The notes under the pieces were generated by a model that did not search any database, had not been told where the DNA came from, and saw only the letters and a program-made list of their open reading frames with translations. A stretch of DNA of 14,811 nucleotides from a virus (Duplodnaviria; Heunggongvirae; Uroviricota; Caudoviricetes). The position numbers and the translations under genes were made by a program. This document shows, in pieces, positions 2,087 through 7,465 of the stretch (position 1 is the stretch's first letter; every line of letters begins with the position of its first letter). The DNA lies in IMG/VR virus record IMGVR_UViG_2548877010_000018; one strand, 5' to 3'.

Positions 2087-2904
2087 GCAATCCCCCTGTC
2101 TGCAAACTTCCCTTCCCGAACTCCCGTTAACGAATCTTCCCTCAGCAGGTAATCAAAATCTGCCGTCCAGCCCGTGTCGTTGTCTCCGAAGTAAAACGGC
2201 TTGGCCTGATGCACAAACGCCCTGACATACGCTCTGAAACCGTCCACGTTTGGCGTTTTCAGTTGCGGGATAATTTTCTTCAGGCGGCGTTTTCGTTTCT
2301 CGTTGACCGCAACAGCGTGTGGAAGTCTGTCACCGACTTCGGTGTTGTAGGCGTTCAGGAAGGATTCGTAGTCGATTCGTTCTGCCTTGCGACGTTCAGG
2401 TTTAACCTGCCCATCGCCATCCCCGTTAGGGGGTAAGGGGGTATTTGTATTTATTGTCTTTTGTATATTGTCTTTTGTGTTTAGCTGACTTGGCTTATAC
2501 CCATTAGCCGACTTGGCTAATGTTTTATTAGCTGTTTTAGCTAATGTTAAGCTGTCCTGGCTAATCCACTGAGAAACCACCTTGTTCACTCCGATTTTCA
2601 CGCCATCAGCAATGAGGAATTTACGCTCAATAAGCTGGCGCTTGGCAGCGCAAACATGAGTGTGATGAATACCTGTCATGGCTGCTATCTGCGTGTTTGT
2701 GAGTCGATCCATCGGCTTATTGAATCCGTATGTCTTGCGCATGATAGCGAGCATCACCTTCAACTGCCGGACGGTTAAATCAGCCATCAGCAGACTGTCG
2801 GTAATCTCGTTAGCAACGCGCATGAAACCATCTTCGGTATCTGCCACGCGATGCTCCACGACCTCCAGTTGAGGCCTGTAATCAGCTAACTTAACGACGC
2901 CCAT
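2083..2904 (-). CDS. Replication initiator, lambda O-like / replisome organizer
   Basis: 273-aa ORF with an N-terminal winged-helix-like segment and a low-complexity linker encoded exactly over the iteron array, as in lambda O where ori sits inside the gene. SD aggagtg lies 5 nt upstream. Confidence 0.75.
2440..2564. repeat. Phage origin of replication: four iterons plus adjacent AT-rich direct repeat
   Basis: Iterons tagctgacttggctta (2482-2497), tagccgacttggctaa (2505-2520), tagctgttttagctaa (2529-2544) and taagctgtcctggctaa (2548-2564), spaced about 20-24 bp. Adjacent AT-rich tract with tattgtcttttgt repeated twice (2450-2477). Confidence 0.7.
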
Positions 2905-3052
2905 GTTTCACTCCTGCTTTGGCTAGTCTGTAAACACCAACAAGGCGCTCTGCGAACGCCCTGTTATTTGCTGCGGCTACCACTAATCCCTCAGGTGAAT
3001 CAGGGTGTCGAATCTCTTCTTTTTCCTGGTATTTCTTACGACGTTTTGTCAT
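2891..3052 (-). CDS. Hypothetical small basic protein (53 aa) between the cII-like and O-like genes
   Basis: ATG at 3052 (minus), open for 53 codons (MTKRRKKYQEKEEIRHPDSPEGLV...), stop overlaps the start of the O-like gene. Below the 60-aa ORF-track cutoff; no recognised family. Confidence 0.3.
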   Translation of the reverse strand: MTKRRKKYQEKEEIRHPDSPEGLVVAAANNRAFAERLVGVYRLAKAGVKHGRR

Positions 3053-3084
3053 AATTACTCCTGTGGATTGATCCAGTAATTCCC

Positions 3085-3381
3085 TCAGAATTGCATATCA
3101 ATTTGCTTAAAATCCTCGGTGGCAGCCGGGGATTTTTTCTTTGTGATTTCATCAAGCGCATACTTAAAAGCCCTGCTAATCGGACTGATGTCTGATGCCA
3201 TTCCGAAAGCACACAAGACCGAAGCAATAAACCGCCAGTCCGTTCTGCTTATCTTCGATTCATGACAGCCAATCATCTTTGCCAGACCGCGCTGTGTAAG
3301 CGTTGACAGGTTGATGAGTAAATCTGTTTCTGCGCGATCAACGTCGCGCTGTGATAGTTTGCTGTAACTTGTTCGTTCCAT
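3085..3381 (-). CDS. cII: CII-like transcriptional activator
   Basis: 98-aa ORF whose C-terminus (KKKSPAATEDFKQIDMQF) resembles the recalled lambda CII C-terminus (KKRPAATERSEQIQMEF). HTH-like core; sits after cro and nutR as in lambda. Confidence 0.7.
   Translation of the reverse strand: MERTSYSKLSQRDVDRAETDLLINLSTLTQRGLAKMIGCHESKISRTDWRFIASVLCAFGMASDISPISRAFKYALDEITKKKSPAATEDFKQIDMQF
3113..3141 (+). terminator. Intrinsic terminator antisense to the 3' end of the cII-like gene (OOP-like RNA terminator candidate)
   Basis: Hairpin cctcgg-tggcag-ccgggg (6-bp stem, one G-U) followed by attttttcttt on the + strand, inside the 3' end of the minus-strand cII-like gene. Confidence 0.4.
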
Positions 3382-7393: not shown

Positions 7394-7465
7394 GCGCGGC
7401 GTTACCGCATACCAATAACGCTTCACTCGAGGCGTTTTTCGTTATGTATAAATAAGGAGCACACC

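Follow-up and report, generated by a model that had tools for sequence, protein, structure and literature searches.

What does a prophage initiator gene encode in the stretch that joins its two protein domains, only a linker or also the origin from which the phage genome is replicated? The question is raised by a lambdoid locus of 14,811 nucleotides (the whole stretch analyzed, hereafter the window), in which a sequence-only reading had placed a replication origin inside an O-like gene on the model of phage lambda. We estimate at about 93% the probability that a lambdoid prophage with an HK97/P22-type replication module has its theta-replication origin in this region. The coordinates of the features discussed below are collected in Table 1.

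Genomic Context

The candidate origin is part of an early-right operon of the lambdoid kind, encoded on the minus strand. Upstream of the initiator gene and on the same strand lie a 53-aa ORF, a CII homolog and a Cro-like HTH protein, with a CI-like repressor gene in divergent orientation; the 53-aa ORF is typical for this type of replication module (PMC3349717). The initiator contains a domain matching the full length of the Pfam profile Phage_rep_O (PF04492; residues 19–113, E = 5.8e-33), and the origin is located inside the ORF, between this N-terminal DNA-binding domain and the C-terminal domain, with the iterons beginning at codon 114, directly past the end of Phage_rep_O. Homology within the C-domain starts at approximately residues 144–160, as judged from mosaic relatives.

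In the segment 114–172, 78% of the residues are small or polar, the mean hydropathy is −1.14, and no sequence is conserved among relatives. A linker in this position is thus compatible with the domain boundaries, the mosaic joints and the composition, in agreement with the low-complexity linker that the sequence-only reading had placed at the origin. A PDB sequence search found no relative of the initiator with a solved structure, and AlphaFold2, run on the single initiator sequence with no alignment, returned a mean pLDDT of 38, too low to be informative.

The gene following the initiator (710–2086) encodes a protein with both the N and C domains of DnaB, 90% identical to P22 gp12 and not homologous to lambda P, so the claimed pairing with a DnaB-type helicase rather than a lambda P-type loader is borne out. 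The recombination genes on the plus strand are close to those of lambda, with 97–100% identity for Gam, Bet and Exo residues 1–85, whereas the initiator C-domain and the helicase are of the P22/HK97 type. The replication module indeed differs in lineage from the lambda-like recombination genes, as had been proposed from the sequence.

Two further elements were observed near the cII gene: a conserved oop promoter/5′ box TTACTGGATCAATCCACAGGAGTAATTATG on the minus strand of the region ~3043–3140 (compare the 33-bp box in PMC3349717), and a terminator-like hairpin with a T-run at 3109–3136 on the plus strand. By sequence, they indicate a putative oop-type antisense RNA over the cII 3′ end. An Rfam scan yielded no family match at the oop region (~3043–3140) and none in the origin region; it did assign Lambda_thermo, the cIII thermoregulator RNA element, to 7453–7511 (+) just upstream of gam and kil (88.5 bits).

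Table 1. Coordinates of the origin components, the adjacent genes and the natural initiator chimeras (window positions unless another genome is named).
Feature	Coordinates	Strand	Remarks
DnaB-type replicative helicase gene (P22 gene 12 homolog)	710–2086	−	458 aa; DnaB N and C domains; 4-nt overlap with the initiator stop codon
Initiator gene (O-like, P22 gene 18 homolog)	2083–2904	−	273 aa; N-domain residues 1–113, linker encoded by the origin, C-domain from ~residue 160
Small ORF	2891–3052	−	53 aa; between oop/cII and the initiator gene; position of P22 orf48 / HK97 gp53
Imperfect 14+14 palindrome	2389–2417		beyond the AT-rich tract; weak; in P22 conserved only in part; low confidence
C-rich box CCCCCTTACCCCCTAA	2426–2441	−	gene strand; encodes TPLPP; common to the window, P22 and Pasteurella phage Pmp10 at the DNA level
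AT-rich tract, presumed DNA-unwinding element	2442–2479	−	38 bp; A-rich on the gene strand; follows iteron 4
ACACAAAAGA box	2471–2480	−	gene strand; start of the AT-rich tract; invariant in 6/6 aligned O-like origins, including lambda
Iteron 4	2480–2498	−	ATAAGCCAAGTCAGCTAAA on the gene strand; adjoins the AT-rich tract
Iteron 3	2503–2521	−	ATTAGCCAAGTCGGCTAAT on the gene strand; 7-bp inverted half-sites perfect
Iteron 2	2527–2545	−	ATTAGCTAAAACAGCTAAT on the gene strand; 7-bp inverted half-sites perfect
Iteron 1 (gene order)	2547–2565	−	ATTAGCCAGGACAGCTTAA on the gene strand; most distant from the AT-rich tract; in register with lambda iteron 1
Natural initiator chimeras, AT-rich/TPLPP joint	P6 1471–2304; Stx2_481 943–1890; S.Inf 5-2 940–1860

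Distribution of the Allele and State of the Prophage

Phages Nil2, 1717 and 2851 and several Stx2a phages carry an initiator gene 100% identical to that of the window, and Salmonella P22-like phages, for example SPN9CC, one with ~98.8% DNA identity. The initiator protein of the window is 99.3% identical to HK97 O, the record of which carries the note "similar to Bacteriophage P22 Gp18". Phage 2851 matches 91% of the window length at ~99.9% identity, and the 221-bp origin segment is present in 443 of 5,426 complete E. coli genomes. A related-locus search in viral contigs returned only loci at least 99% identical, which we used to study allele variation; distant relatives were obtained by tblastn against phage records.

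None of the examined phage records of this allele (Nil2, HK97 and other matches) carries a rep_origin feature, so the origin is only implicit in databases and stands there unlabeled. In the open literature, we found no paper explicitly describing the iterons of the HK97 subtype. P22 genes 18 and 12 and the P22 ori were reportedly treated by Backhaus and Petri in 1984, and the HK97 genome is said to have been presented by Juhala et al. in 2000.

The lambda-type exo gene of the window is interrupted within 8901–10894. Exo residues 1–85 are 100% identical to lambda, at which point the match stops, and the C-terminal part appears to pick up again, through 10894. An IS3-family element occupies ~9157–10469 on the minus strand and comprises OrfA (10086–10412), OrfB with rve domains (9199–10089) and an Rfam ALIL frameshift pseudoknot (10015–10131). 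IS629 is annotated in the corresponding neighborhood of related phage records (Stx2a_WGPS6).

The insertion implies that the copy in the window may sit in a partly decayed prophage, and many O157 prophages are defective. The origin could then be an intact but silent relic in a decaying prophage lacking autonomous replication. We consider this improbable, as none of the ORFs for the initiator, helicase, cII, cro and cI is truncated, the initiator gene is exactly that of isolated phages (Nil2, 1717 and 2851), HK97 O is nearly the same protein, and lambda origin firing does not need Exo. Moreover, such decay would bear on the state of one copy and not on the nature of the element.

Iteron Array

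The sequence-only reading had described four iterons of ~16 bp at a spacing of about two helical turns and had proposed a repeat search over the region as a check. Such a search on the plus strand of 2480–2565 recovered four 16-nt units at 2483–2498, 2506–2521, 2530–2545 and 2550–2565, spaced by 23, 24 and 20 nt along that strand. The consensus, size, spacing and coordinates given earlier were therefore essentially right, with one refinement: the units are 19-bp palindromes and not simple 16-bp repeats. Their consensus in the dyad-symmetric form, ATTAGCY-N5-RGCTAAT, is internally palindromic. Read in the direction of the gene, the 19-mers (Table 1) start at gene positions 340, 360, 384 and 407, which gives a spacing of 20/24/23. 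In the outer iterons 1 and 4, the palindrome is imperfect, and 4 of the 7 pairs mirror each other in each.

The pattern TTAGCYGNNNTRGCTAA, with up to two mismatches allowed, produces six strand-hits in the 14.8-kb window, every one of them at the four iterons; 0.30 were expected, and none of 200 dinucleotide-preserving shuffles of the window reached six. Scanning the window with the 19-mer at up to three mismatches revealed no further iterons near the array, and the only two extra hits lie 9 kb off, at chance level. Since no additional copy appears at three mismatches, the iterons number four and not six.

As single-stranded DNA, the gene strand of the array (2475–2570) folds with an energy of −17.5 kcal/mol (z = −5.45 versus shuffled controls), and the two central iterons form hairpins in this fold. 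The palindromic repeats could instead have another DNA or RNA function, as binding sites of some other regulator or as an intragenic intrinsic terminator or attenuator. This reading could appeal to the folding and to a consensus scan, which picked out 2502–2522 with a T-run as terminator-like on the plus strand, antisense to the gene. Nevertheless, we regard this explanation as very unlikely: the hairpin potential is a trivial result of dyad symmetry, and both the in-register match to the O-bound iterons of lambda (PMC8022706, PMC7466680) and the co-variation with the initiator N-domain are left unexplained by it. The central palindrome was rejected as a terminator because the count of terminator-like structures in the region is at chance level (3 found versus 2.0 expected).

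According to a 2026 preprint (bioRxiv 10.64898/2026.07.10.737580), the iterons of ori lambda lie in a region bound by the defense protein OLD, for which sensing of such hairpins is proposed. As a side possibility, palindromic iterons of the HK97 subtype could, by analogy, be sensed as hairpins by defense systems such as OLD or Lamassu.

AT-Rich Tract and Flanking Boxes

The tract adjoining the iterons has a GC fraction of ~0.20–0.25 (0.25 at 2440–2479), and the plus strand is ~63% T over 2440–2480. According to nearest-neighbor free energy, it has the lowest stability in the whole initiator gene (z ~3.2), and in the window as a whole it is one of the four or five non-overlapping segments of lowest stability; the few similarly unstable stretches are mostly intergenic control regions or gene starts. 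Within the tract, the 13-bp sequence TATTGTCTTTTGT is directly repeated without mismatch (2452–2464 and 2466–2478), so the AT-rich tract with a 13-bp repeat next to the iterons, also part of the sequence-only reading, was described correctly. The weak palindrome located beyond the tract presumably may match the palindrome flanking the lambda AT-rich region, an assignment that we make with low confidence.

The C-rich box, encoding TPLPP, is a fusion joint between differing N-domains and the window-type C-domain. The sequence CCCCCTTACCCCCTAA is common to the window and Pmp10 although protein identity is only ~30%. Taken together, the invariance of ACACAAAAGA across phages of E. coli, Salmonella, Hafnia, Proteus and Pasteurella and the sharing of CCCCCTTACCCCCTAA suggest either DNA-level constraint or recurrent recombination at that point.

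Constraint on DNA and on the Encoded Peptide

The four iterons start at codon positions 1, 3, 3 and 2, hence the signal resides in the DNA and the encoded peptide is not repeated. Allele variation was studied in 62 distinct near-identical alleles from viral contigs, which are mutually related, so the p-values given here are indicative only: 3 of the 48 half-site positions are variable versus 10 of the 28 central or degenerate ones (positions 7 and 13 of the iteron being the degenerate ones; Fisher p = 0.003), and variable third-codon positions amount to 1/20 in the AT/C-box block versus 65/253 elsewhere (p = 0.05).

The view that the repeats are a by-product of a low-complexity peptide (LAKTAN/LAKSAN) selected as protein, with no function in the DNA, could appeal to the biased composition of the segment and to iterons 2 and 3, which share a frame and encode LAKTAN and LAKSAN, but it is hardly credible, and was rejected given the different reading frames of the iterons: iterons 1 and 4 encode unrelated peptides, an inverted repeat in every unit is meaningless for a peptide, homologs have repeats at the same place, with the same spacing and dyad symmetry, that encode a wholly different peptide, and the central spacers tolerate non-synonymous variants while the half-sites are conserved.

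Co-Variation across O-Like Origins

We aligned six origins, namely those of the window, P22, a lambda relative, Hafnia phage Pocitis76, Proteus phage Pm34 and Pasteurella phage Pmp10. Four dyad repeats occupy identical columns in all six, the first one being degenerate in Pm34, and the O-like genes of Pocitis76, Pm34 and Pmp10 thereby share the layout of the window. The half-sites themselves are of several types: ATTAGCC...GGCTAAT in the window, TTTACC...GGTAAA in P22, ATCCCTC...GAGGGAT in the lambda relative, TGTCTC...GAGACA in Pocitis76 and Pm34, and TCCCG...GGGA in Pmp10. In this in-register alignment of six N-domain variants, the type of half-site co-varies with the initiator N-domain. Conservation of the repeats in related initiator genes, which the sequence-only reading had named as a test of its claim, extends to all relatives retaining the N-domain, where position and architecture are kept.

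Natural chimeras separate the contributions of the two domains (Table 1). Salmonella phage P6 possesses a P22-identical N-domain and P22 iterons, yet its C-domain is 96% identical to that of the window. In Stx2_481 and S.Inf 5-2, N-terminal halves unrelated to Phage_rep_O are fused at the TPLPPNG box to a C-domain 97–99% identical to that of the window, and these genes carry differing arrays of ~12-bp repeats (CCGCACATGA... and AACCATSCGAT...). Conversely, lambda, Pocitis76 and Pm34 share the N-domain (43–58% identity) but have unrelated C-domains. A DnaB-type gene is found downstream at every locus with the window-type C-domain, whereas lambda, Pocitis76 and Pm34 have no DnaB-type gene downstream, their partners being annotated as P-type or primosomal proteins. 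The domain swaps and partner genes together indicate that the iterons track the N-domain and the C-domain tracks the helicase partner, which is the classical lambda logic.

The helicase of Stx2_481 (1887–2513) matches that of the window over residues 1–212 only (96%), though the locus continues. This break may reflect another mosaic joint within the helicase, or its disruption.

At the AT-rich/TPLPP joint, three unrelated families of origin-binding N-domains, every one with iterons of its own, are connected to one helicase-recruiting C-domain. On this basis, we tentatively speculate, with the odds leaning against us, that the AT-rich tract with its ACACAAAAGA repeats and the CCCCCTTACCCCC (TPLPP) box may form a universal, specificity-neutral cassette, acting both as the unwinding/helicase-entry site and as a preferred crossover point for swapping initiator halves. 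If so, the origin DNA itself would drive the modular evolution of replication specificity.

Proposed Mechanism and Implications

The feature is real and, judged by homology, almost certainly functional. The mechanism of lambdoid origins has been described (PMC7466680), and by homology with lambda we infer binding, unwinding, helicase recruitment and origin firing at the locus studied here. Transcription from pR, passing through the upstream cro, cII and orf53, would lead to production of the initiator. Dimers of its winged-helix-type N-terminal domain would then bind the four 19-bp iterons, with one subunit per ATTAGCY half-site. Binding of these particular iterons by this initiator is inferred from co-variation, the iterons being different from those of both P22 and lambda. 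Four bound dimers would assemble into an O-some-like complex, bending the DNA and destabilizing the AT-rich tract, and the initiator C-domain would recruit the phage's own DnaB-type helicase to the melted DNA, with no lambda P-type loader hijacking the host DnaB. Host primase and polymerase III would take over afterwards. Placement of the origin in the linker-coding part of the gene would leave the protein sequence there free to follow the DNA signals.

This arrangement is already known: it is textbook knowledge for lambda and P22, and the sequence itself is present in many published phage genomes. The value added here lies in the exact coordinates and consensus of the HK97-subtype iterons, which are unlabeled in the examined database records, and in the invariant ACACAAAAGA and the TPLPP-box joint common to initiators with three kinds of N-domain. 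The comparative set is also a natural illustration of how iteron specificity goes with the N-domain and helicase choice with the C-domain. Finally, the module marks the prophage of the window as a Stx prophage that brings its own helicase, and we hypothesize that its replication, and hence toxin-gene amplification after induction, should depend less on capture of the host DnaB than in Stx phages of the lambda P type.

Comparison with Known Systems

Phage lambda provides the reference architecture. Lambda O binds four iterons located in the center of the O gene, and P22 gene 18 likewise holds four ~20-bp repeats (PMC8022706). The lambda ori has the same architecture as the origin of the window and the same orientation relative to pR transcription, and its annotated iterons 1–4 (at 39034, 39054, 39078 and 39101) match in number, size, dyad symmetry and 20/24/23 spacing. 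The AT-rich tract of lambda likewise opens with the ACACAAAAGA motif. The lambda O N-domain is 42% identical to the window initiator (residues 17–149), while the C-domain is unrelated. The lambda half-site (ATCCCTC...GAGGGAT) is unlike that of the window, and lambda lacks orf48/orf53 (PMC3349717). Its P protein captures the host DnaB, whereas the module of the window carries a DnaB-type helicase of its own. The placement, the iterons, the downstream AT-rich tract, the Phage_rep_O initiator and the co-variation of iterons with the N-domain are all those of a lambda-type origin.

In Stx phages 933W and P27, the origin likewise lies within a lambda-family O gene (PMC7466680). These phages have six iterons of the lambda type, that is, two extra ones, and a loader of the lambda P type, whereas the iterons of the window number four and differ in sequence, and its helicase is of the DnaB type; it therefore does not belong to the six-iteron 933W/P27 type.

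P22 gene 18 is closer. It contains four dyad repeats of ~19–20 bp at the same place in the gene and with the same 20/24/23 spacing as in the window, and the rep_origin of the P22 RefSeq record (32840–32984, inside gene 18) corresponds to window ~2420–2564 in a pairwise alignment. The P22 annotation is worded "similar to phage lambda" and hence is itself made by analogy. Together with the Phage_rep_O match and the column-for-column correspondence to the lambda iterons, it supports, by homology, the original proposal of an origin within an O-like gene parallel to that of lambda. A block of ~57 bp, comprising the AT-rich tract and the C-box, is 100% identical between P22 and the window, but the iterons differ, with half-sites TTTACC...GGTAAA in P22 versus ATTAGCY...RGCTAAT in the window. 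The initiator is 51% identical to P22 gp18 overall, with only 43% in the N-domain and 59% in the C-domain. The partner protein gp12 is a DnaB-type helicase (PMC8022706, citing Wickner 1984), and an orf48-like ORF lies upstream of the initiator in both modules. Judging by these sequences, the two modules should have different origin specificity; the window does not carry P22 iterons and represents the HK97 specificity subtype. In a viable lambda hybrid, P22 orf48-18-12 functionally replaces O-P (PMC3349717), which shows that a module of this kind is a self-contained replication cassette.

The closest counterpart is the gene O/gene P module of HK97, which has the same small upstream ORF and encodes the nearly identical initiator discussed above and a helicase (HK97 P) 99.6% identical to that of the window. 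With a C-domain identity of 99% to HK97 in addition to that shared with P22, and with a DnaB-type helicase gene directly downstream, the module of the window falls into the P22/HK97 type. The HK97-type module is also present in Stx phages Nil2, 1717, 2851 and YYZ-2008, in HK446 and in SPN9CC-like Salmonella phages. No substantive difference separates the origin of the window from the HK97-type origin, with 88 of 822 gene positions variable among the 62 distinct alleles. As far as sequence comparison can tell, it has all the tested structural features of a lambda-type origin and belongs to the HK97-specificity subtype of the P22/HK97-type module; the origin of the window is the origin of the HK97-type module.
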